From IMG/VR virus record IMGVR_UViG_3300007735_000794, positions 34,069-98,068 of that record: a stretch of 64,000 bases of DNA; one strand, given 5' to 3'. The notes beneath the pieces are model-generated. The model saw only the letters and a list, made by a program, of their open reading frames with translations. It was not told the DNA's origin and ran no database searches. A program made the translations under genes and the position numbers. Origin of the DNA: a virus. Positions 20,454 to 59,180 of this stretch are shown piece by piece. Positions within the stretch are counted from its first letter, which is position 1; every line of letters begins with the position of its first letter.

Positions 20454-20455
20454 AA

Positions 20456-23911: not shown

Positions 23912-23912
23912 A

Positions 23913-24689: not shown

Positions 24690-24690
24690 C

Positions 24691-27680: not shown

Positions 27681-27681
27681 A

Positions 27682-28596: not shown

Positions 28597-28597
28597 A

Positions 28598-29194: not shown

Positions 29195-29201
29195 GAGAAA
29201 T

Positions 29202-30203: not shown

Positions 30204-30208
30204 AAATA

Positions 30209-31039: not shown

Positions 31040-31060
31040 TTATATGAGTATTATTGTAAC

Positions 31061-36566: not shown

Positions 36567-38417
36567 ATGACATCACACAATATTAAGAAGAATCTATTGC
36601 AAAAGAAAGATAGATCATACTTGAATAAAGACTTTAATGCATTTAAAGCAGAGCTGCTTCGTTATGCAAAAACTTATTTTCCCGACCAGATACAAGATTT
36701 TAGCGATGGTTCACTCGGCGGTATGTTTAATGATTTGACTTCGTATGTTGGCGATGTAATGTCATTTTATCTTGATCACCAGTTTAACGAATTGAATCTT
36801 GAAACTGCAGTTGAGCCAACAAATATTGAACGTCAAATAAGGCTTGCAGGCGTAAAGATAACTGGCGCTGCACCATCGATCTGCGAAGTTAACTTCTATA
36901 TCAAAGTTGAAGCAGAATTATCATCAGGCGTTTATCAACCAAAATCATCATATCTTCCAATCATCAAAACAAGAACAAAATTACAGTCTAATAACGGGAC
37001 AGTATTTGAATTGTTAGATGATATTGATTTTTCAGAAACAGATACATCAGGAAAGCTGCTAGCATCAATAAGCGTTCTAACGCAAGACGCCTCAGGAAAT
37101 CCAACAACATACTCACTTATGCGTAAAGGATTGTGCACGTCTGGTGAAACAATAGAAGAAAAAGTAGTTATTCCAAACACATTTCTACCATTTAGAACAA
37201 TAACATTAGCAAAAAGCAACGTGTCAGAAATCTTAAGCGTCGTTGACACTGATTTAAACGAGTATTATGAAGTTGCATCATTAATCAATGATGTCGTTTT
37301 TAAAAAGATAGAAAACACAACAAAAGATGCATCAACTGTGCCAGAAAAGTTAATCATTGTTCCTGCACCATATAGGTATGTTACAAAAACGACAGCGAAT
37401 ACAGCAATTACATCGCTTGTATTCGGCTCTGGAAGAGCAGATTCACTTGACGATGATATAATTCCAGATCCAAGCGAACTTGCATTGCCACTTTACGGAG
37501 ACAGAAAGACATTTAGAAGAGTTGCGATAGATCCAAATTCATTGTTACAAACAAAAAGTTTGGGTGTTTCACCCGTTAATACAACATTAACAATCAATTA
37601 CCGCGCTGGCGGTGGTCTGACACACAATGTTTCATCAAACTCGATACGATCAATCATTTCATTGAACACAAAATTCAATCAATCAGTTCCGTCGTCAAAG
37701 ATTGCGCAAATTAGAGCTTCGTTAGAAGTCAAAAATGAAAAAAGTGCACAAGGTGGAGAAAATATTCCATCGCTCAATGAGTTAAGAGCAATTGCATTAA
37801 ATTACAAAAATGCACAATCAAGAATTGTGACGAAGTCAGATCTTATTTCTCGAATCTATTCAATGCCGCCAAACTTTGGGCGTGTCTATCGAGTCGGGAC
37901 AGCGCCCAATCCAACAAATCCACTATCAACAATTTTATACATCATAAGCAGAGATATCGATGGCTATTTGACAATTTCACCTGACACATTGAAAATCAAT
38001 CTTGCAAAATACCTAAACGAATTTAGGCTCACATCAGACGCATATGACATACTTGACGCGCCCATAGTCAATTACAAATTTACGTATAGCGTTGCTTTAT
38101 CAGACAATGTTGACAAAACAACGACATTACAAACAATAAATAAAAAAATCGCTGAGTATCTCGACACAAAGAATTTTCAAATAGATCAACCCATAGTCGT
38201 AAGTGATATATTGAATATCATACTTAATCAATATGGCGTCATATCTTTAGAAAAGACAAAATTTACAAATTTATCGGGAACTGTTAGTGATAGAATATAT
38301 TCAAATACAACATATAATCTTGAAACAAACACACAAAAAGGGATAGTACGACCTCCAGTCGGCGGCATATTCGAATTAAAATATCAAGATTATGATATAA
38401 TAGGAAGTGCAGTCTAA
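36567..38417 (+). CDS. Baseplate wedge subunit, T4 gp6-like
   Basis: YLNKDF, YVGDVMSFYLD.Q, FGSG, YRAGGG..HN, AQSRIVTKSD. Confidence 0.88.
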   Translation: MTSHNIKKNLLQKKDRSYLNKDFNAFKAELLRYAKTYFPDQIQDFSDGSLGGMFNDLTSYVGDVMSFYLDHQFNELNLETAVEPTNIERQIRLAGVKITGAAPSICEVNFYIKVEAELSSGVYQPKSSYLPIIKTRTKLQSNNGTVFELLDDIDFSETDTSGKLLASISVLTQDASGNPTTYSLMRKGLCTSGETIEEKVVIPNTFLPFRTITLAKSNVSEILSVVDTDLNEYYEVASLINDVVFKKIENTTKDASTVPEKLIIVPAPYRYVTKTTANTAITSLVFGSGRADSLDDDIIPDPSELALPLYGDRKTFRRVAIDPNSLLQTKSLGVSPVNTTLTINYRAGGGLTHNVSSNSIRSIISLNTKFNQSVPSSKIAQIRASLEVKNEKSAQGGENIPSLNELRAIALNYKNAQSRIVTKSDLISRIYSMPPNFGRVYRVGTAPNPTNPLSTILYIISRDIDGYLTISPDTLKINLAKYLNEFRLTSDAYDILDAPIVNYKFTYSVALSDNVDKTTTLQTINKKIAEYLDTKNFQIDQPIVVSDILNIILNQYGVISLEKTKFTNLSGTVSDRIYSNTTYNLETNTQKGIVRPPVGGIFELKYQDYDIIGSAV

Positions 38418-39919
38418 TGTATAAAATCCTACAAGCTGATAAAGACTCTTACATTACAAACAAAATCGTAGGACGCTTGCGATCAACTGACGCGAATGTT
38501 GGGCAAGCAGGCACTATTGATATTTTTAAGCTTTATGATGAAAATGTAATTTCTGGTGAAACATACCCAATTGAATTGTCGAGAGGATTAATTCATTTTA
38601 ATCTTGACGGGATTAAAAATATGACGTCGTCAATTCTCGATATTAACAACTCATCATTTAAATGTATTTTAAAACTTCATGACGTTTATGGCGGTGAAAC
38701 AACGCCCACAAATTTTACAATCGCAGTATACCCGTTATCAAAATCATTTGATGAAGGCGGCGGAAAAGACGTTATAAAATTTGAAGATCTTGATGTCACA
38801 AACTTTGTAACTGCTTCATCGATAATAACGCCCATTACGTGGTCTGCAACAGGCGCTAACGCAGCAGGGTTACTAGGAAGCAGCGACATAGATATCATCG
38901 CATCAGGAAATCTAAACGATGGATACGGACTTGTCAATTTGTTTGTTACACAGTCATTTTCTACAGGAATAGAAGATTTAGAAGTTGATGTGACAAAAAT
39001 AATATCAGGCACACTAACAAATCAAATACCTGACTGCGGATTTAGAATTTCATTTATAGATTCACAAGAAACAGATTCAAAAACACGATTTGTCAAAAGA
39101 TTTGCGTCAAAAAATACGACAAATACATCAAAGCGACCAAAGCTAATTGTATCATTTGATGATACAATACAAGACGATCACAGACGAGTAATTTTTAACA
39201 ACACGGGTTCGTTATTTCTTAACAATTATGCAAGAGGTTATGCATCAAATATACTTTCTGGTGCTGCAGCGACTCAATTGTCAGGTGCAAATTGCATGAT
39301 TGTTAATGTATTCTCGGGAGCTTTTAATAAAACATTCTATGCATCGCAACATAGAATAGGACAAAATTATCAAACGGGTGTTTACTCATCATCGTTTGCA
39401 ATAAGCTCATTTGAAAATACATTGACAGCTTCTATCGGGACGACGGGCTCAATAAAGTTCAATGAAGTATGGAAATCTGCAGATCAGACCGTTGCATTTT
39501 ATTCTGGCACATTTATTGCTGCATTAAGTGAAATGACAGCATTCAGTCAAACACCTGAGCGATATTTTGTCACATTGACAAATATGAAGACAGAATATCA
39601 CCAGACAGACAAATATCGTTTTAGAATGTTTATTGAGAACTTTAACTCAAATGTAACATTTACAAAGCTGCCAATTGAAAACACAGGTGTAATAGTCGAT
39701 GAATGTTATTATAGAGTAAGAGACTTTGAAAGCAATGAAGTCATCATACCATTTCATACGCCGGGCACATTAACATCGAATGATTCAACATCACATTATT
39801 TTGATCTTTATATGTCGTCATTGCCGTTAGGAAGAACATATACATTTGACTTTAAGATAGTTAACAAAGGGCTCGAAATCATTATCAATGATGTCGCAGC
39901 AAAATTCAGAGTTGAATAA
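38417..39919 (+). CDS. Putative baseplate or tail structural protein
   Basis: 500 aa, Ser/Thr-rich, in the operon. ADKDSYI...SRGLIHF...RPKL. Confidence 0.6.
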   Translation: MYKILQADKDSYITNKIVGRLRSTDANVGQAGTIDIFKLYDENVISGETYPIELSRGLIHFNLDGIKNMTSSILDINNSSFKCILKLHDVYGGETTPTNFTIAVYPLSKSFDEGGGKDVIKFEDLDVTNFVTASSIITPITWSATGANAAGLLGSSDIDIIASGNLNDGYGLVNLFVTQSFSTGIEDLEVDVTKIISGTLTNQIPDCGFRISFIDSQETDSKTRFVKRFASKNTTNTSKRPKLIVSFDDTIQDDHRRVIFNNTGSLFLNNYARGYASNILSGAAATQLSGANCMIVNVFSGAFNKTFYASQHRIGQNYQTGVYSSSFAISSFENTLTASIGTTGSIKFNEVWKSADQTVAFYSGTFIAALSEMTAFSQTPERYFVTLTNMKTEYHQTDKYRFRMFIENFNSNVTFTKLPIENTGVIVDECYYRVRDFESNEVIIPFHTPGTLTSNDSTSHYFDLYMSSLPLGRTYTFDFKIVNKGLEIIINDVAAKFRVE

Positions 39920-42900
39920 TGCGATCAAAGACAGGTAAAAGACCCAGCTTCGGTTCAAGCGATAGTGCTATAACTAAGGGCGCAGTTTTCAAGAATATAA
40001 AAAACGCAGACATAAGTCATATCAATACGATTAACACGTCGTCATTTAGATATGATCCTGCAGGGACAGGAATAAAATCAACGCAAGAAATTCCAGTTGA
40101 TTATTCTGATTTTGCAAATCATGTATTCTTTAATTCAGCAAGATCAAAAGTTGATGTTGCATTTGACACAATCATAAACAACTTTCCATACGATTCAAAG
40201 CGCTCAGAAATAGAAGATTTTTTAGATGGATTGACGGGATTTGAAAGATATGTGTATGATTCATTTCCAAAAAATGTTGGATATTTGAATTTTAGCGGTA
40301 GCACACAAACATTGCCCGCAGAAGGAACTTACATCATTGTTAATGACGCAAAGTCAATTAATTTTCCGCAACTAAATAGCGTAGACTGCGGCGTCGCTGT
40401 GCTTGATCCGCTTACTTCTTCATTTTCATTTGACACATTTGTTAAGATACCTGCGCAAATAAATGATAACCAAGTTATAACACAAAGAAATTCAACAAGC
40501 GCAGCAGTTACATTAGCAATTTCATCATCAAATTCAACAACCGCATGCAATGTATTAATGCTCGTGTCATCTGCATCAGACGCATATGTTGTAGCATCTG
40601 GATCAATTCTAAAAGATTCATGGGTTCATATTACAGCGCAGATTGAAGAAGAGAATGGTGCAAAAAGAGCTGCAATATATTTGAATGGCAGCTGTTCGTA
40701 TGTATCAAGTGATAAACAAGATTTTGGTACACTTAATTTCAATGGTCAACCTCTATTAATCGGCTCTGGAACGACGCATACAATTCTTGATTATTCATTC
40801 GCGCCAAAAACAACTTACTCTGGATCAATAGATGAATTCAGATACTTTAACACACAAAGAACATTACAGCAAATAAATTCGTACGACACAAGAGAGATTT
40901 ATTCAAATAGCGGATCGTTAGTCGCTTATTTCAAATTTAATGAACCTTCTGGATCATACAGAGGAAACAATGTTGTTTTAGATAGCTCGGGAAATAAGCT
41001 ACATTCTTATATCACGTTCTTTTCTTCGTCGCTTAGAGTTACAGGTTCATCGCCGCTTGTCAATGAAGATGTTTCATTGAATCCTATTCTTTTTGCAAAT
41101 CATAGCGATATAACTACGCTGAATGAAACACTCTTAGACGACGCATCAGCATATGACAATGATAATCCAAACTTTATCATAAAATTAATCCCGCAACATT
41201 ACCTAACACAGGGAGCGCAAGCCTCAGGATTCAAAAATATTGATCAAAATATTGGAAATCCTTATACAGCAACGTCAATACCTGGGACTGGCGTCTTACA
41301 AAAGCCACAAACAATCATCTCATTTTTGTTATTATACGCAAAATTCTTCGATGAAATAAAAATGTTGCTTGATTACTTTACGCATGTAAATTACGTGGAA
41401 CTCGATGATGCTGAATCAGCAATAGATAAATTTTTGCCATTTGTTGCAGATTATTACGGTATTGATTTACCCAATTTCTTTTCAAACACGACACCAGAAC
41501 AATTTTTTTACGGCAAAAATTTATCAAACGATTACAGCATTAGCACGCAGTCGTTAAAAGAAGTTCGTTATCAAATTTGGCGTCGAATTCTTGGCAATTT
41601 TACAGAATTAGTTCAATCAAAAGGAACAAGATCGTCAATCAAAGGCGCGATTCTAGCAACTGGCATAATACCAGAAAACTTCTTTAATATTCGTGAATAC
41701 GGTGGCCCAACAACACGAAATTTGTCAACATTGCGTCAACAAACTCAAGAAACATCTCAAATGCTAGATATGTCTGGATCTAGCGCTGTTATAGTACCTG
41801 TCATAAATGGTAGATTCTTTGCACGATTCCCACATATTATTTCACCATTCTTGTCATCGTCAAGAACAGAGCCGGGATACCCAATAATCTCAGGCACTTT
41901 TATTCAAACTGGAAGCAATTACATCTCAAATTGTAAATCTGACGGATTGCTAACATCGGGATCATTCACAATTGAGAATACTGTTAAGTTTAATACAACA
42001 ACGCAGCATAGCAATACGCAAAGTATTGTTAGACTTAACACGACAGGATCACAAATGCCGTGTAGAACGATGTCTTGCATATTAAATTTAACATACAATC
42101 ATGATTCTACTGTTGAAAGTGGAAGCATAAATTTGAAAGTCAGACCTAGCAAGTCAACAGTCTCACCTATTCTTGATCTAAACCTGACGGGTGTTAATTT
42201 GTTCAATGGCGAAAAGTGGTATGTTTCTTGCGGTCGTGTAAGAAATGATTTAACTTCTTCGCTTTCTTCATCGTATTTTATTCATGCAGGTTATAACGAA
42301 GATCAAACGTCATTTACATATTTTACTACGTCATCATTTTTTAATGAAAACGTCGGCGCTTCGGGTGAGAACATGTTTGAAGCACTCGATGATGATTACA
42401 ACGCATCAGGATCATTCATAACAATCGGATCACAAAGCTATACTGTTACGGGTTCATTATTCTTAAACGTAAGCGAATCATTTACACAAACACATTTTGA
42501 CGGTTTAATGTCGCAATTTAGATTTTGGTCAAAAGCAACAAACGAAGATGAAGCAAAAGAACATATAAGAAACTTCAGATCGCTCGGCGTAATCAATCCA
42601 CAAGATAATTTCAATTTTATCAAAAATACATCGGGATCATTTGAGCGATTAAGAATCGATGCAAATATCGATCAAGCAACAACAAGCTCAGATGCGCTCG
42701 GTAACATAACAATATTCGATTTTTCACAGAACAATATGCATTTGTCAGGGTCTGGTTTTGAATTCAGTAAGAAGATATTAAAAAATGAATTGTTCGTGAT
42801 TAATAGAATTTCACCAAATTTCGATTTACTACAGACAGATGACAAAGTAAGAGTTCGTAGCTTACTTGATACAAGCAATTCAAGTACATATACAGCGCAG

Positions 42901-43368
42901 GCGCCACTTAATACTTTAGGACAAGACGTAGAAATAAATGACGATACAAGATTTTCAATAGAATATTCTGTAGTCAAAGCATTAAATGAAGACATGATTG
43001 GCATGTTTGGGAATACACAAACTCTAGACGAAGCGCTGGGTCAGCAATCATTCTTGTTTGACAGCGAGTATAATGAATTACAAAATCTATCTTACATTTA
43101 TTTTAATAGATTGACAGACAAGATTGACATTAGACGCTATTTAGAATTATTCAAGTGGTTTGACAATTCATTGACAGCGCTTTTAAATCAATTCATTCCA
43201 AGAAAAGTGAATTTTTTGGGTGTCAATTATGTAGTTGAATCGCATATGTTAGAAAGACACAAACACAGATACTTGTATGACAAGCAATATCTTGGAACGC
43301 AAAGAACAAAAGCTGATTTGACAAGCAAACATATTGACGTGCTTACAGGCAGCTTGAGGCGATTTTAA
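39919..43368 (+). CDS. Large baseplate or tail protein with LamG-like domains
   Basis: WVHIT...AIYLNG...LLIG...YSGSIDEFRYF; a second LamG-like unit FDGLMSQFRFW; SKGT...IREYGG. Confidence 0.72.
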   Translation: MRSKTGKRPSFGSSDSAITKGAVFKNIKNADISHINTINTSSFRYDPAGTGIKSTQEIPVDYSDFANHVFFNSARSKVDVAFDTIINNFPYDSKRSEIEDFLDGLTGFERYVYDSFPKNVGYLNFSGSTQTLPAEGTYIIVNDAKSINFPQLNSVDCGVAVLDPLTSSFSFDTFVKIPAQINDNQVITQRNSTSAAVTLAISSSNSTTACNVLMLVSSASDAYVVASGSILKDSWVHITAQIEEENGAKRAAIYLNGSCSYVSSDKQDFGTLNFNGQPLLIGSGTTHTILDYSFAPKTTYSGSIDEFRYFNTQRTLQQINSYDTREIYSNSGSLVAYFKFNEPSGSYRGNNVVLDSSGNKLHSYITFFSSSLRVTGSSPLVNEDVSLNPILFANHSDITTLNETLLDDASAYDNDNPNFIIKLIPQHYLTQGAQASGFKNIDQNIGNPYTATSIPGTGVLQKPQTIISFLLLYAKFFDEIKMLLDYFTHVNYVELDDAESAIDKFLPFVADYYGIDLPNFFSNTTPEQFFYGKNLSNDYSISTQSLKEVRYQIWRRILGNFTELVQSKGTRSSIKGAILATGIIPENFFNIREYGGPTTRNLSTLRQQTQETSQMLDMSGSSAVIVPVINGRFFARFPHIISPFLSSSRTEPGYPIISGTFIQTGSNYISNCKSDGLLTSGSFTIENTVKFNTTTQHSNTQSIVRLNTTGSQMPCRTMSCILNLTYNHDSTVESGSINLKVRPSKSTVSPILDLNLTGVNLFNGEKWYVSCGRVRNDLTSSLSSSYFIHAGYNEDQTSFTYFTTSSFFNENVGASGENMFEALDDDYNASGSFITIGSQSYTVTGSLFLNVSESFTQTHFDGLMSQFRFWSKATNEDEAKEHIRNFRSLGVINPQDNFNFIKNTSGSFERLRIDANIDQATTSSDALGNITIFDFSQNNMHLSGSGFEFSKKILKNELFVINRISPNFDLLQTDDKVRVRSLLDTSNSSTYTAQAPLNTLGQDVEINDDTRFSIEYSVVKALNEDMIGMFGNTQTLDEALGQQSFLFDSEYNELQNLSYIYFNRLTDKIDIRRYLELFKWFDNSLTALLNQFIPRKVNFLGVNYVVESHMLERHKHRYLYDKQYLGTQRTKADLTSKHIDVLTGSLRRF

Positions 43369-44091
43369 ATGACACCTTTCAAAGACACAAGCATTTCTCT
43401 AATTGATGGCGAAGAGCAACAAATCTTGGTCGCGCCAAAAGCTGACACTGTCGCATTTGATTCATATCGACAGGGTAGTGAAGTCACTCTCGTAAATTAT
43501 TTTATGAGATCGACGCTACCTTATATGTCATCAAAAGGTCTAAAAAATAGCACACTCAACACAAGAGTAGTTCCAGAGCTTGAAGCAAATGATCTCGGAC
43601 AAAATATCTTAACAACGCAACAAGTGCCCTTTGAAGATGCATCTGATAGATTGACTGCTGCAGAAATATTAAGCGCAAATGCAACACAAAACTATGATGA
43701 TGAAAGAAATGATGCATTCTCAAATGATGGAAAGATAACTGTTTTTTCTGATGATGGAAAAGTTGAATTGTTTTTGCTTCCTCGATCGCTAAATTCAAAA
43801 GGCTTCAAAGCATCACTAATAGAAATAAGCAGCGAAACATTCAAAAATAGCACAGTACAATCACAATTATTCTATGATTGTGTTGATCAAATAAACACAA
43901 TACCAGTGCAGGGTTATACTGTTAACAATCAAACAACTGACCCATTCAAAGAAAAAGATTTGACAAATGATTTTTATCAAAAAATAGAATATTCATATAT
44001 CGGACAAGATGAAAGAACATATTCACGTGGATGGTCATATGGCACATCAGCAGGAACAGACTCTATTGCATTTGGTGGTTTGTTAAGATGA
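43369..44091 (+). CDS. Putative structural protein
   Basis: 240 aa, ends GTDSIAFGGLLR, in the operon. Confidence 0.55.
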   Translation: MTPFKDTSISLIDGEEQQILVAPKADTVAFDSYRQGSEVTLVNYFMRSTLPYMSSKGLKNSTLNTRVVPELEANDLGQNILTTQQVPFEDASDRLTAAEILSANATQNYDDERNDAFSNDGKITVFSDDGKVELFLLPRSLNSKGFKASLIEISSETFKNSTVQSQLFYDCVDQINTIPVQGYTVNNQTTDPFKEKDLTNDFYQKIEYSYIGQDERTYSRGWSYGTSAGTDSIAFGGLLR

Positions 44092-46508
44092 AATCAAGAA
44101 TTTTAAACATATCACCAAGAACACAATTGCGCGCAGATGACGCAAAAACAGGATCGTATCCTACGATTGATAGATTTTGTGACAATAGAACGACATTTAA
44201 TAACGACAACAAAGTGTTCGATGACGGATCTACGACGCTGTTCAATACACAAACTGTTCTAATGCCGTATAACACGCCGCTAGCGAAAGCAATCACAACA
44301 AACTTCAAGACAGGGTCGATTCAGATTTCGAAGCCTATTACAAAAGGTACACAATTCTTAAAGCAATTTCAAGAAACTGTAATATCTCCATTCGATGAGT
44401 CGCGCAATCCTGCATGGCAATTAACAAGCAGAGAAATAACAGGTTTGAATGAATCTATCTGGCCTGGATTTTCATCATCTATTGCTGACAAACTAGTCAT
44501 ACCAATCGATATCACAGCAGCATCTGAAAGGAAAATTTACAAGATGTCGTCTGCAAGATCAACAAATTCGCAGTTTCCAGAAGGATCGGGATTTGTCTAC
44601 TATAACTTTCAAAGAAAAATGTGGGAAGACATAGGATTAAGGGACCCAATAACAAACACGGCGACAACATATGATTATGTTTTTAATCACGCAGGCGGCT
44701 ACATGCTTCGTGATGTCAATATAAAGAGCTATATGTGTCAATTTACACCTTCGCCATGCGTATCGATATCAACATCCTTATCGTCGACATCTTCGCTTCA
44801 ATCGCTCGGATATGATAAAATTGGTATTCCCACATCATATTTTGATGCACCAAATGCTTCAAGATACCATGCAACATCAAGTCAAACATTAAAATTGTCT
44901 AATTTTATTTCAAAGCCATTCGTATTGGAAAAAATATACGTAGAATTGCCAGTGATTGGAACAAGAACACAAGATGCACAAACGTCTGGACCGCTAAAAT
45001 CGGGTGCTGTTAAAGACATAACAAATCATGTCTTTTTTATGTATCGTCAAAATAGAACAACACCATACAAAGATACGTTAACAGACATATCGTCAAGCAT
45101 TAGATCGCTTGTAGCGAATGAATCATTTTGCTTTTTTAATTCATCATCGATCAATGGCGGAAACAACCCAATTCACTCGGCAATTCAGCGATTTGAACAT
45201 GGGCAAGACTTAAATACTGCATCAGTATCATCTGTGACGGGTAGCTTGAAATTTACATTCAGACCGCGTGTTTACAATCAGTTGATAAACGCAGTATCGA
45301 TGTATCCTGCTGAGAGTTCATTTGGAACAAATCAAAAAATGATCGGCATACAGCACTATTGGGCCGGAGGCTCAAAAGGAACGATGATAGAAAACGGAAA
45401 AGCAAACTATAGCGTTTCAAGTGATACAGACATTGTAAATTACAACACACAAGTAAAAAATGATGTAACATCATCAGAAAATCCGAGAATTCTTGCGACT
45501 GCAGTTGCAGACCCACGTCCATTTAAATCTTCGTTCTGGAAAGCAAATAATCAAGTAAAGACAAATACATTCTTTACGGGCTCTGGCACATTCAATGTTG
45601 GAGTAACAACAGACACTATAGATTATTATAGAGAAACGCCCTACATTTTGTTTCCAGATGACGAGTTGATCTTTGGACTTGACTGTGGGTTTATGACGCT
45701 TATATCGTCATCATATGATACAGCATCATTTGCAAGTACACATGCTATTCGTGGGCAAGATAATTCATTTTTGAATATAACTGGCTCGTATTTGACAATT
45801 CCCGCTACAAATGCAAGAATCTTGTTGTATGGCTCAACTATAAAAATGGGTGCAGAAAAACTCCCAATCTTAAACCAAAAATTAACGTCAAATGCAATTC
45901 ATGAAACAATCCACGAAGAAATTACAGATACATATGACACACATGAAAGAATACTAAATTCGGGCTCATATCTTGATAATTGGATGAGAGGATCGATTCT
46001 TGAAGGAAATGCAAGAAGAATAAAATGTGATGTAAGCAGTTCAGCATATCCATTTCGTAGATTCAATAGATTCGTAACAATGAGATGTTTTTCTGAGCGC
46101 GCAGTTTCATTGACATATACGCATTTTACGTCTGTCTTCAATAGAAATCATTTCGGGCATTCGAGAGATATGCTAGAGCAACGAAAAGATTCGAAATCAA
46201 TCAACTACAGTTATGTTGAGAAAGGAACAAATCAAATCAACTTTAACAAAATTACGTCAACAGTGGCAGTGTCAAGTCCCGCAGTTTGTAAATTTGTTTC
46301 ACAATCATCTGATCTTGTTATTTCTGCAAGTGATACAAGATCTTGTAATCTAAGCACAGAGTTCACATGCTCATTACCATTCTTTGATGGCATTGCAATG
46401 AACAGATCAGAAATTTCATTCAATGCAAATTCACCATTCGCGCCTCAGACTGCAGTTCTTAATAAAGCATCTTCACTTTTGTCTTCGACACAAAATAACA
46501 ATAGATAA
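44088..46508 (+). CDS. Putative structural protein
   Basis: About 806 aa, Ser/Thr-rich, ATGA overlap with the upstream gene. Confidence 0.6.
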   Translation: MKSRILNISPRTQLRADDAKTGSYPTIDRFCDNRTTFNNDNKVFDDGSTTLFNTQTVLMPYNTPLAKAITTNFKTGSIQISKPITKGTQFLKQFQETVISPFDESRNPAWQLTSREITGLNESIWPGFSSSIADKLVIPIDITAASERKIYKMSSARSTNSQFPEGSGFVYYNFQRKMWEDIGLRDPITNTATTYDYVFNHAGGYMLRDVNIKSYMCQFTPSPCVSISTSLSSTSSLQSLGYDKIGIPTSYFDAPNASRYHATSSQTLKLSNFISKPFVLEKIYVELPVIGTRTQDAQTSGPLKSGAVKDITNHVFFMYRQNRTTPYKDTLTDISSSIRSLVANESFCFFNSSSINGGNNPIHSAIQRFEHGQDLNTASVSSVTGSLKFTFRPRVYNQLINAVSMYPAESSFGTNQKMIGIQHYWAGGSKGTMIENGKANYSVSSDTDIVNYNTQVKNDVTSSENPRILATAVADPRPFKSSFWKANNQVKTNTFFTGSGTFNVGVTTDTIDYYRETPYILFPDDELIFGLDCGFMTLISSSYDTASFASTHAIRGQDNSFLNITGSYLTIPATNARILLYGSTIKMGAEKLPILNQKLTSNAIHETIHEEITDTYDTHERILNSGSYLDNWMRGSILEGNARRIKCDVSSSAYPFRRFNRFVTMRCFSERAVSLTYTHFTSVFNRNHFGHSRDMLEQRKDSKSINYSYVEKGTNQINFNKITSTVAVSSPAVCKFVSQSSDLVISASDTRSCNLSTEFTCSLPFFDGIAMNRSEISFNANSPFAPQTAVLNKASSLLSSTQNNNR

Positions 46509-46511
46509 TTA
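46505..46511 (+). promoter_or_regulatory. Putative late promoter ATAATTA
   Basis: 5 nt before the ATG at 46517. Confidence 0.5.
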
Positions 46512-46516
46512 AAGAT

Positions 46517-46783
46517 ATGCTGCTTTCACATTCAAAATTGTCTCGATTGATTCGCGAAGTTCTCACATTAAACAATGAAATGTTATCTGCGATTATTGCA
46601 AATTTGTATGAGATCGCAGGTTATCACAACACAAAAAAAGATTTACTAGAAGATAAAGATTTCATTGCGCAACTAGCACAATCATCAAAAATAGCTTCGC
46701 AAATGAGCGAAAGCGAATTTGGCAATCTTATCAACAGCACATTCGAACAATACGATCTAAAAGAGCCAAATGATGCTGAGTGA
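46517..46783 (+). CDS. Small protein with capsid-targeting-like leader
   Basis: MLLSHSKLSRLIREVL. Confidence 0.65.
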   Translation: MLLSHSKLSRLIREVLTLNNEMLSAIIANLYEIAGYHNTKKDLLEDKDFIAQLAQSSKIASQMSESEFGNLINSTFEQYDLKEPNDAE

Positions 46784-46826
46784 GCTAGCGATGATGACTA
46801 GCTTAAACGAGAAATAAGAGGGATAA

Positions 46827-47792
46827 ATGTCTGGTATATTAAACAAAAAGACAAGAATCATGGACGTCATAATGACGCAAGAAGGTAAGCGCCAACTTGC
46901 AGCAGGTGATTTTCAAGTAAAATATGCTTCATTTACAGATGGCGGAACATTTTATGACAAAACCTCAATTTCGGGCTCATATGACGAAGCACAAGATAGA
47001 TTGTATTTTGAGGCATGCAGCTATCCATTCGATTCGATAACAATAGAAGCGAATGATCACGGAAATGTTCTATCACAGAACATAAGCGTCAATAACGACG
47101 GATCAAGAATAATCGTAGCAGATGGAAAAATTCTAATTGCAAGTAGCAGCAGAAATCCCATCATTAATAACGCTGCATCAGACTCATCTTATGCGTCATT
47201 TGTCAATGAAATCATTAAAAGTACAACATCAAACTTCAAAAAACAAAGAATCATTGCATCACGAGATCCGCTTGATGACTCAGATGAGTTTTTATTGTCA
47301 ACAGGCTCAATTAGCTTAACATATGGAAATAGTGGGCCAATCGTGGGAGAAGAACTTATACCTCGTCTTGATCAAGCACCCTCGCTTTTCACACACAAAC
47401 GCTTTTCAAATTCGTTAAATTTTCAATATTTGCCACCTATTGTGAATACACGCACGGGATCAATACAGCTGGGCAAGTACACAGATATAAAAACAACTGA
47501 AAGTTACACATTTGAAGATTTGATGACTGATCTTAGCGGGTCGACTACGGGAATTAAAAAACCACACAAGACAATAAACTTTGATATAACAACTACAACG
47601 AATGATATTACAATTCAAGCATTTGAAACAAACAGCGAGTATCTTAAAAAGCTTGACGTTGTTGACTTTGGCGAATTTAAATCTAATAGCAATACATCTT
47701 CAAATTCAAGAGTTCTTTTTTTGGGAAAGGTTTTTGTAGATAAGTATAAAACGCCAACGTTTGCAAATATATTCACAATTGTTTTGGAGTAA
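46827..47792 (+). CDS. Putative baseplate or tail-collar protein
   Basis: DVIMTQEGKRQLAAGDF, shared with 54945. AGAGGG SD. Confidence 0.6.
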   Translation: MSGILNKKTRIMDVIMTQEGKRQLAAGDFQVKYASFTDGGTFYDKTSISGSYDEAQDRLYFEACSYPFDSITIEANDHGNVLSQNISVNNDGSRIIVADGKILIASSSRNPIINNAASDSSYASFVNEIIKSTTSNFKKQRIIASRDPLDDSDEFLLSTGSISLTYGNSGPIVGEELIPRLDQAPSLFTHKRFSNSLNFQYLPPIVNTRTGSIQLGKYTDIKTTESYTFEDLMTDLSGSTTGIKKPHKTINFDITTTTNDITIQAFETNSEYLKKLDVVDFGEFKSNSNTSSNSRVLFLGKVFVDKYKTPTFANIFTIVLE

Positions 47793-47794
47793 AG

Positions 47795-52700: not shown

Positions 52701-53096
52701 GAATATTTGAAAATTCTGTACGGCATTGATTTTAGTCAGCAGTCATTTGTGCAAAATGATAACGTGAATGTTGATAGCGACTATATTAATACAAAAAATT
52801 CAATTGAAAAAGTGACGACAACTCTTAAGAAGTTGAATCTCGATGATTTAATCTTGTCAAGATATACAAATGCTGTAAGTAATTCTGCAGGATTTAAAAA
52901 ATCAACATTGCAAAAACAAGCTTTACAAGGTCCTGTTTTTGATAAAATAATTGCGATTCCAATTGATGGCGATTTGTTGCGTGCTTCAAATATCGAATAC
53001 TTAAATGATATGATAACAACAATCGACATGTCATTTGGTAATGAAATTACGCAAAATACAATCGATATTCAACGCACAATAAGTGTAAGGGGTTAG
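49725..53096 (+). CDS. Large putative structural protein
   Basis: About 1123 aa ORF in the tail operon, no recognised motif. Confidence 0.55.
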   Translation: MKPNLSFTTGKESIASPVDISTGKSFTVKRDLRTKSASSTAANDALTINKSGYDEFISKKGVNSAVPTVLSIVPLKQREVEKSIINIQHTLNKTTLTDVQNIIMNTTSSFSQNELAEFDAGFTDNFKGTVEKISAVYKAKADYLSFISNLTTLATSDVETWILLNPVIESKNSSYTIDFSVKNTSGIKSSLTLDTWLKDELHVNDIAGRFNITKMLQALRNSYAMLRMGDISSVQSTDSTFKLEKVKNDVYEQSVNFLNSIYDKSITLSNSSLEQMIDNSLSILSKDVSLQFSSGFSGEGENVKSQFASLLGNVAKHNYEQDLTSDKNSGVFFDLLNQKSNNKFVLSIDNNLTSQDSLSKYINADQHYLIGPLSTNLKLMNERLTEFQGNYQKIYDGLNSLKSKMQLNNDARVFFAFFKSLSSYCDKTFMTEIPAHEMLNSMTRFLIFQQSITNFDLLRSVLRIMMFRDRLRNAQDYEQDETKADVLRAKSKAQIKGLCKKIALSQFGLKEGAKANTYSPDDLCISNASKIFTSKIGGTSSTLDDSPQTIELTDTQIRDAYQDLFDALIVEDYTQFDIFYDAAKSLEGTGYSITSTQMTNDDPLTAKVGIVDQFINSNRDHRAITFFIKAMLWFKNLQTIDGNASFYCANSLSNNAYSSTDSGASSVVSTLTVQFNYDVTFFARMQAIIDTLISLPNVMTSQDLELARKTATFKSVIDSNKSIKSDIEKEATTLATTLGFTNYENVTISDKGTLELIETLTDEIWTLYDKNIAVLLDSILKPVIKKSQYVYETFEYMTNYLSKTISLLEIASSAASSYISSYGENISTLYTNNALSLLKNIEENGLNTTKDLNLYTRSMFQDDTYLKGMLTYANNALPNTEDSFVVIVGIPYGMLERMGSYRQNIERNVNVKLTFRDINLGTKTIYELTTTYPASSFINEYTQKYSTNDYASNNALIDATNLFYLDINESIIIDDFTSNEAKTNELKSKSVIEYLKILYGIDFSQQSFVQNDNVNVDSDYINTKNSIEKVTTTLKKLNLDDLILSRYTNAVSNSAGFKKSTLQKQALQGPVFDKIIAIPIDGDLLRASNIEYLNDMITTIDMSFGNEITQNTIDIQRTISVRG

Positions 53097-53097
53097 A

Positions 53098-54894
53098 TTG
53101 TCAAATTTTACATATCCAGCACTTCCAGCCGTTGTTGCAGGTCTAAAAAATCCAGAAATAGTCGATGCAAAATTTGTATACAATTATTTTATGTCTGACG
53201 AGCGCGTTAATGAAAAATCACTAATCCAACAAGCCGATGGTGTAACTGATCAAGCGTATTTTGTCTCGAGACAAAAACAACAACCTCGATTCGTCAAATT
53301 AACATTCAAACAAGCAGCATACAACGCAGAAAATATCAATATCAACAATGTGATATCTGCGGGCGCGCAAATAATGTATGAAGATGCGCCATTTAATCAA
53401 AATACATCTGCAATAAAAGTTGCAGATACAGTTGCAGATCAAAGAGCATATTTAGTTGCTTCTGCATCAAATAGCGACCTTTTCTTCGACAACAAATCAC
53501 TATTTGATTCTACAATGCTAGATGAATCTCATATGGCTGCAATAGACACATCAAATTCAAAATCATTTATCTTTAATGCCCTAAAAAATATACAGTCAGC
53601 AGGCTATCAATACGCGAAGACAGATGCAAGTGACATTGTAAGAAGCGACTTTTTAAATGACATAAAAGGATTCTCTGCTAGCATTTCATTAAGCAATTTA
53701 TTCATTTCTGACATAGTAGAGAATATCATTTCGAATGAGACGACAATATTCGCAGATGAATTTGCATCTACAAAATCAAAAGCAAAACAGATTCAAAAAA
53801 AATCAAGAATTTCAACAAATACATTTGTACTTTCCGCAGAAGATTATGATCTTACAATTCCGTATTATGAATATGAACTTCTTGATGCTGTAAGCGTCGA
53901 ATCAACAGACGTTGTCGTCACGCATGTTGGATTTGCAATAGAAAAATACGGACAAAATATTGATGGCTCGCTAAAGATTTATGACACATTCTATCTTGAT
54001 GCAGGAAGTAATGACTTATACGACTATGAAGTGAGATATGGCGGGTTGTACACGTACGTAGTGAGATCAATTTTTCAAATAACAATATACGCTGCAGTCG
54101 TAACAAATTCAGGAACTTCTACACAAATTGCAAAAACAAAAATGTTGTTTGGAACATCAGGCAAGAACAACGATGTCTTTTGCATTGAAGAAACGCCTCC
54201 ACCTGCGCCCGATGATGTATACTTTAGACTGTTACCTACAGGTGACTTGTTTATTGGTTGGAAATTTCCATTTAACAAACAGCGTGATATTAAAAAATTT
54301 CAAGTATTCAGGCGCAAGACTTTACAAGAGTCATTTGAGCTTATAAAGCAACTTGATTTTGATGATTCAATCGTGAAATCACCTAATATCGAAAATGTTC
54401 CATCAATTTTGATAGAAAAGCATTCACAACCAACATGCTTGTTTGTTGATAAGACATTCAATGTAAATTCAAAATTTATTTATGCAATTGCAAGTATTGA
54501 TGCCCACGGATATTCATCGAACTATTCAACGCAGTACGAAGTCAATGTTAATCTCTACACAGAATCGTTGATCATCAAAGCAGTAGTTAGAAAAGATTGC
54601 CCAAAACCATATCCAAATCTTTATATCAATCAAGACTTTTTTGTTGATTTAGTAAAAGATTCTAATCATACAAAAATGTCAATTTTTCTAGATCCCGATT
54701 ATTCTGATATGTATAATAATGCAGGTAAAAAATTAGGGATTATGGCATTCAATAATAAGCGCGCATCTTATAAACTTCATATTCTTGAAACAAATCTTGC
54801 GCAAGATCAAATATTAGACATTACATTGAAAAATGAAAAACTCCCTGTTGAAATTCCGGCGAGTGAAGCAAAAGTTTACACACAAGTAAGATAA
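53098..54894 (+). CDS. Putative structural protein with FN3-like domains
   Basis: D.EVRYGGLYTY, PPPAPDD...IGW...FQVFRR...YAIASIDAHG.SS.YS. TTG start. Confidence 0.6.
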   Translation: MSNFTYPALPAVVAGLKNPEIVDAKFVYNYFMSDERVNEKSLIQQADGVTDQAYFVSRQKQQPRFVKLTFKQAAYNAENININNVISAGAQIMYEDAPFNQNTSAIKVADTVADQRAYLVASASNSDLFFDNKSLFDSTMLDESHMAAIDTSNSKSFIFNALKNIQSAGYQYAKTDASDIVRSDFLNDIKGFSASISLSNLFISDIVENIISNETTIFADEFASTKSKAKQIQKKSRISTNTFVLSAEDYDLTIPYYEYELLDAVSVESTDVVVTHVGFAIEKYGQNIDGSLKIYDTFYLDAGSNDLYDYEVRYGGLYTYVVRSIFQITIYAAVVTNSGTSTQIAKTKMLFGTSGKNNDVFCIEETPPPAPDDVYFRLLPTGDLFIGWKFPFNKQRDIKKFQVFRRKTLQESFELIKQLDFDDSIVKSPNIENVPSILIEKHSQPTCLFVDKTFNVNSKFIYAIASIDAHGYSSNYSTQYEVNVNLYTESLIIKAVVRKDCPKPYPNLYINQDFFVDLVKDSNHTKMSIFLDPDYSDMYNNAGKKLGIMAFNNKRASYKLHILETNLAQDQILDITLKNEKLPVEIPASEAKVYTQVR

Positions 54895-54919
54895 TTTTTA
54901 ACGTGATATTTTTATGCAA

Positions 54920-54926
54920 ATAATTA
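54920..54926 (+). promoter_or_regulatory. Putative late promoter ATAATTA
   Basis: Upstream of an AGAGGA SD and the ATG at 54945. Confidence 0.5.
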
Positions 54927-54944
54927 AAAAAGAGGAAGTCGACA

Positions 54945-55637
54945 ATGGCATTTCTTAGACAAGACACAGGCAACATTGTTATTGACGCAGTATTGACTGA
55001 TATCGGCCGCGCAAAACTTGCGCAAGGCAATTTTTCAATTTTTTCTTTTGCTTTTGGCGACGACGAAATCGACTACAGCGTTATTGAAAAATACGGACAA
55101 ACAGTCGGAAAAGAAAAAATTGAAAAGAATACACCGATTTTCGAAGCCTTGACGAACACGAACTTAGCAATTAAAAGTACGCTAACTTCATTGTCAAAGC
55201 CAAATCAGCTATATATGCCACAAATGACAATTAATGGTTTGTCTTCTGGCATTTTGACAATTAACGAAGGTAGCTCATCAAAAGGCGTGTCAATTAGCGT
55301 TGCAATGAGTTCAACGATTGGTGGATCAGTTCCAGCAGAATTAGTTGACAACGTGTTCATTGTTTACGTCAATCGTTTGTTCTTGTCTGTATCGGGTCAA
55401 GTTCCAATAAATTCGCAAGCGCTATCAAACAATCCTGCAATGAATACAGCACGTTATGAGATTGCATCGACTACAAGCACAACACCAATAACATTAAATG
55501 CAAAAAGTATTCCGCAAGCAACGTATAATACATACTCAGCATTTTCCGGCGGATCATACATAAAAACATTTGTAAGAGTTGTAGGAAGAAATTCAGGAAT
55601 AAGCAAAGACTTTGAAGTAAGAATCGCAGGAACCTAA
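54945..55637 (+). CDS. Putative baseplate or tail-collar protein
   Basis: IDAVLTDIGRAKLAQG...FAFGDDEIDY...TPIFEA. Confidence 0.65.
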   Translation: MAFLRQDTGNIVIDAVLTDIGRAKLAQGNFSIFSFAFGDDEIDYSVIEKYGQTVGKEKIEKNTPIFEALTNTNLAIKSTLTSLSKPNQLYMPQMTINGLSSGILTINEGSSSKGVSISVAMSSTIGGSVPAELVDNVFIVYVNRLFLSVSGQVPINSQALSNNPAMNTARYEIASTTSTTPITLNAKSIPQATYNTYSAFSGGSYIKTFVRVVGRNSGISKDFEVRIAGT

Positions 55638-55646
55638 GAGGATTAA

Positions 55647-56870
55647 ATGATCAAACTACTTTCGCCAGACGACATCAAAACAAGCACGTCATATCTTAAT
55701 CAATTAGTCGATATTCTCCCAGAAAATATTAGCGGTTCTGCGTCTCGTAGAACATATGATGTATTTGTTACATCTTCTGCTGGATCAACTATTTCTTCAA
55801 TCACTTCATCGTTATTTGAAACAGTGTACGATCAAGATTACACAACAGTTACAGCAAATGAAATTCTTGATATGACAGTAGGCTTATATGTTTCATCAAG
55901 CACTGTGACTGGCTCATCTTACGTCGGTCTTGATTCTGTGGGCAAATTGTTATTTACATCTCAGTCTGTTATGATGCGTGAAAAAGTTGGAATTTATCAA
56001 GAATACGCGCAAGTTTTGTTAGGTGACAAAGATCAACAATTCACATCACCATTTACAATTACAACAGAAGACAATACAGCAAAAATAGACGAAGCGTTGT
56101 TTATCAACTTTAAGCGATTGTTTACAAGAGACAAAATTAAACCAGAAACTTTTGCAATGCGTTTCTATACAACAGCAGCAATTGATGATACAACACCAAC
56201 ATATCCAAGCTATGCAAATCTTGCAATCACTTCACTTTCTGGTTCCAAAGTATTCTCAGATGTTGGAGCTGCAACATCCGTTCAATATTCGTATGGCGGT
56301 CAAGTCGGTAATATCGTTGATGCTGCAAGCACAACATCAAATGTCGGTCTAATTTTCTATGATCAGGGCATTGCCGTACTTGATCTTAAAAAGATAACAT
56401 CAGGATCGCAGCATATGTCGGGTACAATTAGTGCTGTAGGGACATCTACGTCTACAATCACAATGGGCAAAGTTGGTGCAGGTAACGCATCTGCGAAGTT
56501 TATTCCCGACTTTCTCGTATCAGGCTCGATTAATGACATTGTGAAACACATTGCGCAATGTAGATTCAATTCAGGCTCAGACACGGCAATCACATTCCAA
56601 AATATTACGAATATAAATTCGACGCTAGTTTTCTGCAGAGCAACTGCAGATGAGTTTAATTACTCAACAAATCCGACTGCAACAGACACAAATGGAAGAA
56701 TCGTTGTAATTGATGAAGGTCAAGAAGACACACAACGCACATTCTCGTTTATAACCTCAGTGGGTTTGTATGACACTGCAGGTGATTTGCTTGCAGTTGC
56801 AAAACTTAGCAGACCAATAGAAAAGAATGATGAAAAGGATCTCACAATTAGAGCAAGGCTTGACTTCTAG
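55647..56870 (+). CDS. Putative baseplate or tail protein
   Basis: C-terminus EFNYSTNPT...ITSVGLYD...LLAVAKLSRPIEK...RLDF. Confidence 0.65.
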   Translation: MIKLLSPDDIKTSTSYLNQLVDILPENISGSASRRTYDVFVTSSAGSTISSITSSLFETVYDQDYTTVTANEILDMTVGLYVSSSTVTGSSYVGLDSVGKLLFTSQSVMMREKVGIYQEYAQVLLGDKDQQFTSPFTITTEDNTAKIDEALFINFKRLFTRDKIKPETFAMRFYTTAAIDDTTPTYPSYANLAITSLSGSKVFSDVGAATSVQYSYGGQVGNIVDAASTTSNVGLIFYDQGIAVLDLKKITSGSQHMSGTISAVGTSTSTITMGKVGAGNASAKFIPDFLVSGSINDIVKHIAQCRFNSGSDTAITFQNITNINSTLVFCRATADEFNYSTNPTATDTNGRIVVIDEGQEDTQRTFSFITSVGLYDTAGDLLAVAKLSRPIEKNDEKDLTIRARLDF

Positions 56871-56885
56871 TCAAAGAATCGATGA

Positions 56886-59180
56886 ATGTCATTTATACCG
56901 ATAACACAACAAAATATTGAAAATGTAACGCTTGTATTGCATCCACAATATAATTTTGTTTCATCTTCTTTGGGCATCACAGGCTCGATAAATCTTGTAG
57001 CAAAACCCACAAATACAATACGTGATATCACAGAAGAAACACAGAGTGGTATAGGATGGACTCAAGGGCAAATTTTGAATATACCTATGGTGGCCTCGTC
57101 AGAAGTTAACAGAGGTACTACAGATGTATCGGGTTTAATGATAAAGTACATGCAGAACGTGCATAGTCAATCAAATCCGCTGAGAAACGACATAACATTT
57201 GCGCCCGCAAGATATTCGATGCCGTACAAGTTCAATGATGACTATTCAGGCTCACCCTATATTATGAAGAGAGTCATGACAGAAACGCTGATGCCGTTTT
57301 ACAAGCACAGTTTTAGTCATAGCGATTTTTCATGTGTAAATTATAACTCATTAAATTTCTTTTCATCGTCACATATTCCTAACAATACAGCAATAATTTA
57401 TGCAAATACATCAGACACTACATCGTATCCATACACACCACAAAGTGAATTTACAATAGATTTTTATATTAATCCTCGCTATAAATCACAAAAGAATAGT
57501 GCATATACAGCAGGGACGATTATGCATTTATCGTCAACATTTGCTGTTTCTCTTGTGACTGGTTCTAGCAAAGATGAAAATCAAAATATTGATGGATTTA
57601 GGCTGTTATTGCAATTAAGCCAAAGCGCAGATCAACCACCCACGACAATAAATATTGCTAATGTTGCATCAGGTCTTTCATATCCAAAAAACCTGACATA
57701 TATCACACAAGACAATGCGCTAAAGTGGAATAATTGGCATCATGTAACAATACGATGGGGCAGTCTTTCAAGAAGCTACGGTTCAGGAAGCATAACTGTT
57801 GATAATTTAGAAACAACATTTAATATTCCATCTTCGTCTATATCAACAAACTCTGATGCGCTCGTATTGGGAAACTATTACGCAGGACCGTCAGCGATGT
57901 ATGATTTTTTCAATACAAACGCTGCATCAAATGAAGGGATACCGCATCTCACACAATCGACAGGAACAACAGACCCACATCTTTTTAGATTTGATAATCC
58001 TTTACGTGCAGAAGTTCATGATTTAAAAATCTTCAAGCGCTATTTGTCAAATTTTGATATAAAAAGGTACGCAACAAAATCAAATAGTAAAGACAAAGAT
58101 TTGTTATTTTATGTTCCACCCACATTTAGCACAGAAACAGATAATCACATTGTTTTGACAACACCATTTAGCACAAAAACAAAAACGACGACCACTCCCT
58201 TTAACGCAGATTTGGCATATTCAGTTAACGGATTTTATGTTAATCTTGAAAATTATACAAAAGACTTCGTCACAAAACAGCACCCACGCTTATACAATTT
58301 GACTGCATCTGCAATTATTGCTGCAGGACCCAATTTATCTGCAAATGAAATTTTGTATTCAAATTATAGAACTTCAAAAAGAAATTTATCAATTTTGCCA
58401 AATGATAACGGTCTGCTTTACCCTGATTTTTCGATTCTTGAAAATGAAACTAGCAATATTTTCAAGAATGACTTGGGAAATACAGACACAAGCATTATTT
58501 CTATGAGAGCAATAGCATCATCTTCATCTGTTTTCCCCGGGTTAGCGCCTGACTATGATGAAATTTGTGGCGCAACACCTACCAACATGTCTGGCGCTTT
58601 GGGTGCTGCTTTGTCAATTGCACAAATGTTTAAAGATCAAAGCTCAAATATGGTTTCAATTTTTGATATGTCAACACTTGACTACGGAAGATCTATACAG
58701 CAAGGCACATTCACTCTAAAAGATTCGCTGTTATACGGATCATATGGTGAAATGTCATTGACATTAAAAGACAATGAAGCAGGATCGTTGTACAGAAGTG
58801 ATTGTCTAACAACGCCCGCGACGTGGAATTCTGTTGGGAACATATTTTATGCAGAAGGTTCGTCGATCATTGTCAATCCGCTTTTAGCGATGCTTGGATC
58901 AACTAATTATGAGATTGCGTACAAGGGTGAAAAGCATACAAATGTCTTCATTGTAAATGCACCAGCTCCTGCGTCATTAATAAACTCTTCTTCTAATACG
59001 ACATACGAAACATTTTCAGTAACAGATAACGCGAATGAAAGAGAAGATAGATTTGTCTATATCACTGGAATAAATTTGCACGATGAAAATTTGAATGTTA
59101 TTATGCGTTCAAATTTAGCGCAGCCGATAGCAAAGCGCGACTCAGACGAGTTTGTTTTTAGAGTGAAATACGATTTCTAA
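56886..59180 (+). CDS. Putative baseplate or tail protein with LamG-like domain
   Basis: FTIDFYINP, WHHVTIRW. C-terminus paralogous to 55647 (ITGINLHD...LAQPIAK...KYDF). Confidence 0.65.
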   Translation: MSFIPITQQNIENVTLVLHPQYNFVSSSLGITGSINLVAKPTNTIRDITEETQSGIGWTQGQILNIPMVASSEVNRGTTDVSGLMIKYMQNVHSQSNPLRNDITFAPARYSMPYKFNDDYSGSPYIMKRVMTETLMPFYKHSFSHSDFSCVNYNSLNFFSSSHIPNNTAIIYANTSDTTSYPYTPQSEFTIDFYINPRYKSQKNSAYTAGTIMHLSSTFAVSLVTGSSKDENQNIDGFRLLLQLSQSADQPPTTINIANVASGLSYPKNLTYITQDNALKWNNWHHVTIRWGSLSRSYGSGSITVDNLETTFNIPSSSISTNSDALVLGNYYAGPSAMYDFFNTNAASNEGIPHLTQSTGTTDPHLFRFDNPLRAEVHDLKIFKRYLSNFDIKRYATKSNSKDKDLLFYVPPTFSTETDNHIVLTTPFSTKTKTTTTPFNADLAYSVNGFYVNLENYTKDFVTKQHPRLYNLTASAIIAAGPNLSANEILYSNYRTSKRNLSILPNDNGLLYPDFSILENETSNIFKNDLGNTDTSIISMRAIASSSSVFPGLAPDYDEICGATPTNMSGALGAALSIAQMFKDQSSNMVSIFDMSTLDYGRSIQQGTFTLKDSLLYGSYGEMSLTLKDNEAGSLYRSDCLTTPATWNSVGNIFYAEGSSIIVNPLLAMLGSTNYEIAYKGEKHTNVFIVNAPAPASLINSSSNTTYETFSVTDNANEREDRFVYITGINLHDENLNVIMRSNLAQPIAKRDSDEFVFRVKYDF

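Follow-up and report, generated by a model that had tools for sequence, protein, structure and literature searches.

A candidate O-glycosylation sequon in tail and baseplate proteins of aquatic T4-like phages and its co-variation with a GT4 glycosyltransferase pair

Some mycobacteriophages are reported to glycosylate their virions with glycosyltransferases (GTs) of their own, with glycans at the C-termini of the capsid and tail-tube subunits (Freeman et al., 2023, Cell Host Microbe, as summarized in PMC12619734). In Gram-positive bacteria, a complex of GtfA and GtfB primes the cytoplasmic O-glycosylation of serine-rich repeat adhesins, and further GTs that vary from strain to strain extend the glycan (PMC6973325). 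The “moraphages,” large aquatic phages predicted to infect Bacteroidota, have four core GT orthologous groups, for which virion glycosylation has been named as a possible role (PMC12619734). The subject of this work is a stretch of 64,000 nucleotides (the window), the final 64 kb of a 98-kb contig from an uncultured giant freshwater phage (IMGVR_UViG_3300007735_000794, positions 34,069 to 98,068). Six of its tail and baseplate proteins are rich in the tripeptide [ST]GS, considered here as a candidate O-glycosylation sequon. The excess is real and beyond chance, and across phage genomes it co-varies with one pair of adjacent GT4 glycosyltransferases, GT#1 (31061..32308) and GT#2 (32287..33471, overlapping GT#1 by 22 nt); these and the other window features whose coordinates are written below with two dots lie on the plus strand.

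The arrangement shares with the mycobacteriophages the use of the phage's own GTs, the proposed targeting of virion proteins and the proposed modification in the host cytoplasm before release. However, the candidate sites are an internal tripeptide in folded baseplate, fiber and spike proteins instead of the C-termini of capsid and tube, and the GT4 pair is conserved over hundreds of aquatic phage contigs. As in GtfA-GtfB, two GT-B type genes are adjacent, the putative acceptor Ser/Thr is flanked by small residues, and the GTs that would extend the glycan are variable. By contrast, a Pfam scan of both phage GTs (E <= 0.001) returned only Glycos_transf_1-type families and no DUF1975, and both keep the E-x7-E motif (E286/E294 in GT#1 and E280/E288 in GT#2), whereas GtfB is a non-catalytic chaperone. 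The phage sites also differ from the long, disordered, alternating-serine repeats exported by the accessory Sec system in being single, dispersed and folded (high pLDDT), and no accessory Sec accompanies them.

The TibC/Aah heptosyltransferases and the HMW1C-type N-glycosyltransferases are soluble and act, before export, on numerous short sites spread over beta-rich adhesins, and the phage system would resemble them in all three respects: soluble enzymes, dispersed short sites and beta-rich surface proteins as substrates. However, TibC/Aah are GT9-like and act on Ser in autotransporter repeats, and HMW1C belongs to GT41 and acts on Asn in NxS/T, whereas the phage pair is GT4 and NxS/T stands at expectation in the six proteins (63 against 63.3). 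The general O-glycosylation sequon of the Bacteroidota, D-(S/T)-(A/I/L/V/M/T), is not enriched in them either (15 against 19). The phages described here are like the moraphages in being large, aquatic and T4-like, with gp6, gp25, PhoH, primase and GTs, but that paper reports no sequon, target proteins or GT pair (PMC12619734). A literature search found no published report of this phage SGS sequon or of glycosylated tail proteins of relevance.

The tripeptide and the proteins that carry it

The six proteins, whose genes start at 38417, 39919, 44031, 46827, 55647 and 56886, together contain 38 [ST]GS against 5.5 expected (about sevenfold), a number that none of 1000 residue shuffles matched; the remaining proteins of the window contain 9 against 8.7. 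Among the 8000 tripeptides, SGS (21 against 4.35) and TGS (17 against 3.5) hold ranks 1 and 2 between 38417 and 59180. The order of the residues matters, as seen in a permutation control that reorders the same residues and is independent of any composition model: SGS occurs 21 times, GSS 7 times and SSG once, TGS occurs 17 times and each of its five permutations 1-6 times, and the other window proteins are flat in both comparisons. The excess therefore stays after correction for composition and by permutation, and these two controls rule out a composition artefact. A motif at the DNA level is ruled out by codon variety, since the 47 [ST]GS sites are encoded by about 40 different codon triplets, which places the signal at the level of the protein. 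The sites are scattered along the proteins, with none in tandem, and 23 of the 38 are directly followed by a hydrophobic residue (1.8 expected for the four-residue pattern).

The 1149-aa baseplate/tail protein that follows gp6 in the gp7 position (39919..43368) has 16, with first codons at 40294, 40597, 40819, 40909, 40948, 41041, 41773, 41908, 41956, 42043, 42118, 42406, 42448, 42631, 42745, and 43345. The 500-aa protein directly after gp6 (38417..39919) has 2 (0.65 expected), an 825-aa orphan tail protein without a Pfam or PHROG family (44031..46508) has 6 (1.1 expected), and a 321-aa orphan tail protein (46827..47792) has 4 (0.5 expected). Further downstream, a 407-aa tail protein (55647..56870) has 6 (0.7 expected) and a 764-aa tail protein (56886..59180) has 4 (0.9 expected, p = 0.015). 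A 182-aa tail-spike-like fragment (16380..16928) has 2 against 0.4 expected, which is not significant alone (p = 0.06), and its membership in the set is uncertain. A first-pass annotation of the same DNA had counted 16, 2, 6, 4, 6, 4 and 2 sites in these proteins, in the order given, estimated that one or two were to be expected in the 1149-aa protein, found none in the gp6-like protein or in those at 47795, 49725 (here 49719) and 53098, and described the sites as dispersed and accompanied by many [S/T]-[A/S]-S variants. All of its counts and zeros are reproduced exactly, the computed expectation for the 1149-aa protein is 1.7, and the [ST][AS]S variants are indeed in excess (38 against 16.9).

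The bias extends to the protein families. The 1149-aa protein has hundreds of homologues, of which the best 120 (to 40% identity) average 10.7 [ST]GS against 1.9 expected. The excess is confined to fixed alignment columns, and the unconserved, scattered occurrences amount in total to about the chance level. In the conserved columns S or T occupies the first position with few exceptions, G (in some cases A or S) the second, and the third follows the order S>T>A, giving a positional consensus of [S/T]-[G/A/S]-[S/T/A]-hydrophobic in more than 100 homologues. Judging by these alignments, purifying selection maintains the sites. The family of the 500-aa protein contains 314 [ST]GS against 50 expected, a mean of 5.4 per protein, again in fixed columns (residues 215-364); the window copy, with only 2 sites, has substitutions at several of these conserved columns. 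Homologues of the 825-aa and 321-aa proteins contain 36 against 11.8 and 11 against 1.8, respectively. The C-terminal domain of the 407-aa protein is common to fiber-like proteins of the cultured Flavobacterium phage immuto, Microcystis phage Mel-JY01 and Rhodothermus phage RM378, and of the genome LR756508.

The inner baseplate shows the opposite tendency. The gp25-like (36068..36565) and gp6-like (36567..38417) proteins match the T4-type wedge families (PHROG baseplate wedge), and both avoid the motif. A set of 66 distinct gp6-like sequences, drawn from related loci, contains 4 [ST]GS where 36 are expected and 2 SGS against 19 for its permutations, and 4 independent alignment columns contain the motif against about 14.5 from permutations. 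The gp25-like family has 2 against 8.3 expected, and a neighboring 385-aa family is neutral (32 against 37). On these sequence counts the tripeptide is selected for in some proteins and against in others, as is expected of a recognized signal.

In immuto, where the identity of the proteins follows the depositors' annotation, the enriched proteins are two tail spikes (26 against 5.9 and 6 against 1.4), the tail sheath (7 against 1.3) and the post-gp6 proteins. The tail tube, tape measure, hub, gp6, gp25 and head completion protein have no [ST]GS, and the capsid protein has 1 against 0.6 expected. This distribution fits an outward-facing pattern. The enriched open reading frames (ORFs) of RM378 are mostly orphans.

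The large proteins after gp6 up to 59180 have almost no family matches in Pfam or PHROGs, and the sole match among the enriched ones is Laminin_G_3 (Pfam) at residues 164-320 of the 1149-aa protein. The AlphaFold (AF2) model of this protein (pLDDT 82.8) consists of two LamG/pentraxin-type jelly rolls together with helical domains, and the 500-aa protein is modeled (pLDDT 87) as a string of Ig/FN3/CBM-like beta sandwiches. In the two models the sites are found at strand starts, strand ends, a hairpin, in mid-strand and at a helix cap, all of them confidently folded. Because the motif occurs in several folds and contexts, a single fold-specific role is unlikely.

As a separate observation, the Asn-Gly dipeptide is rarer than expected both in the six motif-rich proteins (10 against 17) and in all others (39 against 52), a shortage that may represent avoidance of this deamidation-prone pair.

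The GT4 pair and its distribution among phage genomes

In the families of both GT#1 and GT#2 the first Glu of E-x7-E, a motif of retaining GT4 enzymes, is invariant, and the second is kept in at least 90% of the members. Sequence searches against solved structures returned nothing but generic GT4 enzymes for GT#1 and no match for GT#2. The predicted GT#1-GT#2 complex scores 0.88, a mark attained by 58 of 80 solved complexes and by 2 of 110 mismatched pairs, and the best of three controls scores 0.00. Prediction runs agree in at least 97% of the contacts, with a partner pLDDT of at least 90, and dock the C-terminal tail of GT#1 (residues 408-415) on residues 248-256 of GT#2. The two enzymes therefore probably bind as a heterodimer, as far as modeling can tell.

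The pair is nearly always preceded by a gene for a PD-(D/E)XK-fold protein (30209..31039 in the window). This trio stands in constant order in nearly all of 80 viral loci, which were retrieved from more than 590 matches; GT#2 itself is found on more than 590 viral contigs. Immuto, Mel-JY01 and RM378 carry the trio as well. A more distant group has PhoH ahead of the trio and, behind it, a GT2 that resembles the one at 16962-18839 of the window.

For comparison across genomes, the sum of SGS and TGS was divided by the mean of their permutations, and 14 genomes were compared in full. The six with GT#2 range from 1.98 to 3.02 (the contig of the window, 2.24; immuto, 2.32; Mel-JY01, 1.98; RM378, 3.02; G010, 2.51; G017, 2.05) and the eight without it from 0.54 to 1.20 (T4, 0.54; Ma-LMM01, 0.87; S-PM2, 1.20; HTVC008M, 0.94; P-SSM2, 1.02; LR756508, 1.12; G006, 1.02; G007, 1.04). 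The bias is thus lacking in all eight of the relatives and other phages that lack GT#2.

Among these eight, LR756508, G006 and G007 are close relatives and share the gene order of the window: gp25, gp6, a homologue of the 500-aa protein, a gp7-like homologue, fiber-domain proteins, RuvC, primase, and SbcCD. Neither GT is present in G006 or G007, each of which has a completeness rating of 100%. Ten LR756508-like representatives of the 1149-aa protein have 0-3 [ST]GS, whereas nearly all of 39 more distant homologues have a 3- to 8-fold excess, and in a low-identity alignment the former have other residues in the motif columns. The motif-poor homologues in these three genomes indicate that the fold does not require the motif. 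A requirement of the LamG/ConA-like fold in particular is rejected on the same loss and on the presence of the motif in Ig/FN3-like and helical contexts. The trio locus of LR756508 (LR756508.1 302641-307587; loci L140 and L103) consists of thymidylate synthase, the PD-(D/E)XK gene, a small ORF and GT#1, with an unrelated 261-aa ORF in the place of GT#2.

Two gene-content screens, covering ORFs of at least 100 aa, point to the same element. Of the ORFs of the window contig, GT#2 alone occurs in each of the three cultured motif-rich phages and in none of the six motif-poor genomes compared in that screen. When the 158 ORFs of immuto are taken as the reference against 13 comparison genomes, the top four discriminators are glycosyltransferases encoded at a single locus, and no co-varying kinase, acyltransferase, protease or chaperone was found. 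The first-pass annotation had proposed a sequon read by the adjacent GT cluster. The bias does track GTs, but the co-varying element is one adjacent GT4 pair, most strictly GT#2, and not GT clusters as such: P-SSM2 encodes a large, unrelated set of GTs (PMC12801897), and LR756508 has GT#1 and a weak match to another GT4, yet neither shows the excess, which rules out “any GT cluster” as the correlate. T4, S-PM2, HTVC008M and Ma-LMM01, which have no GT set, are likewise free of it.

Three further genome-level observations deserve mention. The motif-rich contig G011, in which no GT pair was found, is not a decisive counterexample, as it is 83% complete and ends 2-5 kb before the position of the trio in the syntenic G010 and G017. 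G010 (153 kb, the IMG/VR contig behind locus L239) has GT#1 split over both contig ends, which indicates that it is circularly permuted and probably complete, though CheckV gives 87%. The motif-poor cyanophage P-SSM2 (NC_006883) has one 597-aa ORF at 18953-20746 with 15 [ST]GS against 3.8 expected, which is possibly a low-complexity fiber.

Gene layout of the window

Upstream of the trio lie the accessory glycan genes (16962..30188): three to four GT2 and two GT4 genes, methyltransferases, an AsnB-like amidotransferase, Sulfotransfer_3, WbqC, a UDP-glucose/GDP-mannose dehydrogenase and a weak PIG-L match. GT2 or GT4 Pfam domains occur in at least 8 genes of 16962-33471. Uronic acid, deacetylase and sulfotransferase functions had been ascribed to this cluster. 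The first and the last are borne out by two UDPG_MGDP_dh domains (Pfam, E = 4e-26 and 3e-22) and a Sulfotransfer_3 match of 36.5 bits (cut-off 27), but the deacetylase is not, the PIG-L match of 21.7 falling below the Pfam cut-off of 28.2. The dehydrogenase is also found next to the trio in 25 related loci. Accessory gene content nevertheless differs among related phages, with aminotransferases, an epimerase and methyltransferases in immuto and Mel-JY01, so that the glycan would not be conserved.

Within the tail block, three large proteins of 646, 1125 and 598 aa (47795-54894) have no [ST]GS and match no family of Pfam or PHROGs; they may lie inside the virion or not belong to it. On the 3′ side of the block are genes for a RuvC-like resolvase, a primase and SbcCD-like proteins, and the contig stops within the SbcC-like gene (62201-64000). 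Relatives of about 100 kb have CheckV completeness values of 20-32%, which implies a genome of at least 300 kb. The capsid, portal, sheath and terminase genes of the window phage are therefore beyond the available sequence.

A proposed phage O-glycosylation sequon and its alternatives

The reading that we favor, at somewhat better than even confidence, is that [ST]GS is an O-glycosylation sequon on outward-facing virion proteins and is written by the GT4 heterodimer. The system would be a phage-encoded, cytoplasmic protein O-glycosylation, in which the translationally coupled GT#1-GT#2 heterodimer acts on protein and starts the glycan, with one sugar or more, at the leading Ser/Thr of the tripeptide. 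The acceptor signal would be [S/T]-G-S followed by a hydrophobic residue, with A or S tolerated at the second position and T or A at the third. As targets, the exposed turns and strand ends of already folded outward proteins are proposed (the baseplate periphery, fibers and spikes, and in relatives also the sheath), and the variable accessory genes would then extend and decorate the glycan, which may serve the virion as a coat in shielding or in adsorption. Proteins such as gp6 and gp25 would avoid the tripeptide because a sugar at their interfaces would damage assembly.

Several points weigh against this proposal. Most GT4 enzymes act on non-protein acceptors, and neither GT of the pair shows a recognizable protein-binding domain. 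The PD-(D/E)XK-fold gene always adjoins the pair, hinting at some other role, and LR756508 retains GT#1 but has no motif excess. A literature search found no report of a glycan on immuto, Mel-JY01 or RM378. The correlation is, on the trees, based on few independent evolutionary events, and the trees are poorly resolved. In the gp6 tree a polytomy joins the motif-poor relatives with two motif-rich groups, which is compatible with a single motif-rich origin. The primase tree has RM378 outside an ingroup that includes the motif-poor relatives, with more than one change in every bootstrap tree, but the second independent event hinges on this phage, which sits on a long branch. The motif-poor relatives are lower in Ser/Thr and higher in G+C, although the permutation ratio should cancel both. 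Finally, the protein around the sites is well folded, and the sites are close to strand boundaries, places where Gly and small polar residues are frequent for structural reasons.

This last point recurs in the main rival, in which [S/T]-G-S is a turn or strand cap in the beta-rich tail proteins of one clade, an inherited and unmodified structural habit, and the GT pair is a trait of the same clade with another substrate. It is unlikely. In its favor, most sites in the two models are within about 3 residues of a strand boundary or in hairpins, with a hydrophobic residue next; the family excess sits in conserved columns and shows no turnover; and the gp6-bearing motif-rich genomes could all be one clade. 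However, the homologues in LR756508, G006 and G007 fold without the motif, and the beta-rich tail proteins of T4, S-PM2, P-SSM2, HTVC008M and Ma-LMM01 have no excess. A structural habit would also leave unexplained the strict order of the residues (SGS as opposed to GSS or SSG), the occurrence in unrelated folds and the avoidance in gp6 and gp25. Both the GT pair and the excess also occur in RM378, a phage with no detectable homology in its baseplate.

Less probable still is that the tripeptide is read by another modification (phosphorylation or acylation) or by an assembly chaperone, or that the GT pair glycosylates a non-protein acceptor, for instance DNA, a lipid carrier or the host envelope, and is tied to the motif only indirectly. 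The constant presence of the PD-(D/E)XK-fold gene, the ThyA gene beside it in LR756508 and the frequent use of lipid or sugar acceptors by GT4 enzymes are consistent with such alternatives, and the size limit of the screened ORFs leaves room for a small reader. On the other hand, the gene-content screen gave glycosyltransferases only. Mel-JY01 and RM378 lack a thymidylate-synthase-family gene, which makes glycosylated hydroxymethyl-pyrimidine DNA unlikely, and a target in DNA or the envelope would leave unexplained why a tripeptide is favored in some virion proteins and selected against in others.

The earlier idea of a proteoglycan-like coat, in which a uronic acid-containing, sulfated chain of the glycosaminoglycan type is attached at Ser-Gly, is very improbable: a Ser followed by Gly as the proposed O-linked acceptor and the nearby uronic-acid (dehydrogenase) and sulfotransferase genes do recall eukaryotic proteoglycans, but the SGxG/acidic consensus is not enriched (SGxG, 2 against 1.4 in the six proteins), the third position is Ser and then a hydrophobic residue follows, the GTs found belong to GT2 and GT4 only with no xylosyltransferase-type enzyme, PIG-L remains below its cut-off, and the accessory genes are variable.

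The O-glycosylation proposal is directly testable, because the cultured phages immuto, Mel-JY01 and RM378 carry both the GT pair and the motif excess. If it is correct, a short, portable sequon with a two-gene writer would be useful for cytoplasmic glycoengineering. In its broader form, to which we give an even chance, a large, widespread group of T4-like aquatic phages, with hosts that range from Flavobacterium and Rhodothermus to Microcystis, coats the outward face of its virions with self-made, lineage-variable glycans, and the [S/T]-G-S read on folded proteins by its dedicated heterodimeric GT4 would be the first defined O-glycosylation sequon of a bacterial virus. As part of the same coat reading, and with the balance just as level, sites may be gained in exposed proteins and avoided in buried ones by analogy with the glycan shields of animal viruses. 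Virion glycosylation would then be a common trait of abundant marine and freshwater phages, given the more than 590 viral contigs with GT#2, and extend beyond a few mycobacteriophages. It would bear on adsorption, on the evasion of host surface nucleases, proteases and receptors-as-decoys, on contact with grazers and particles, and on the modeling of tail structures.

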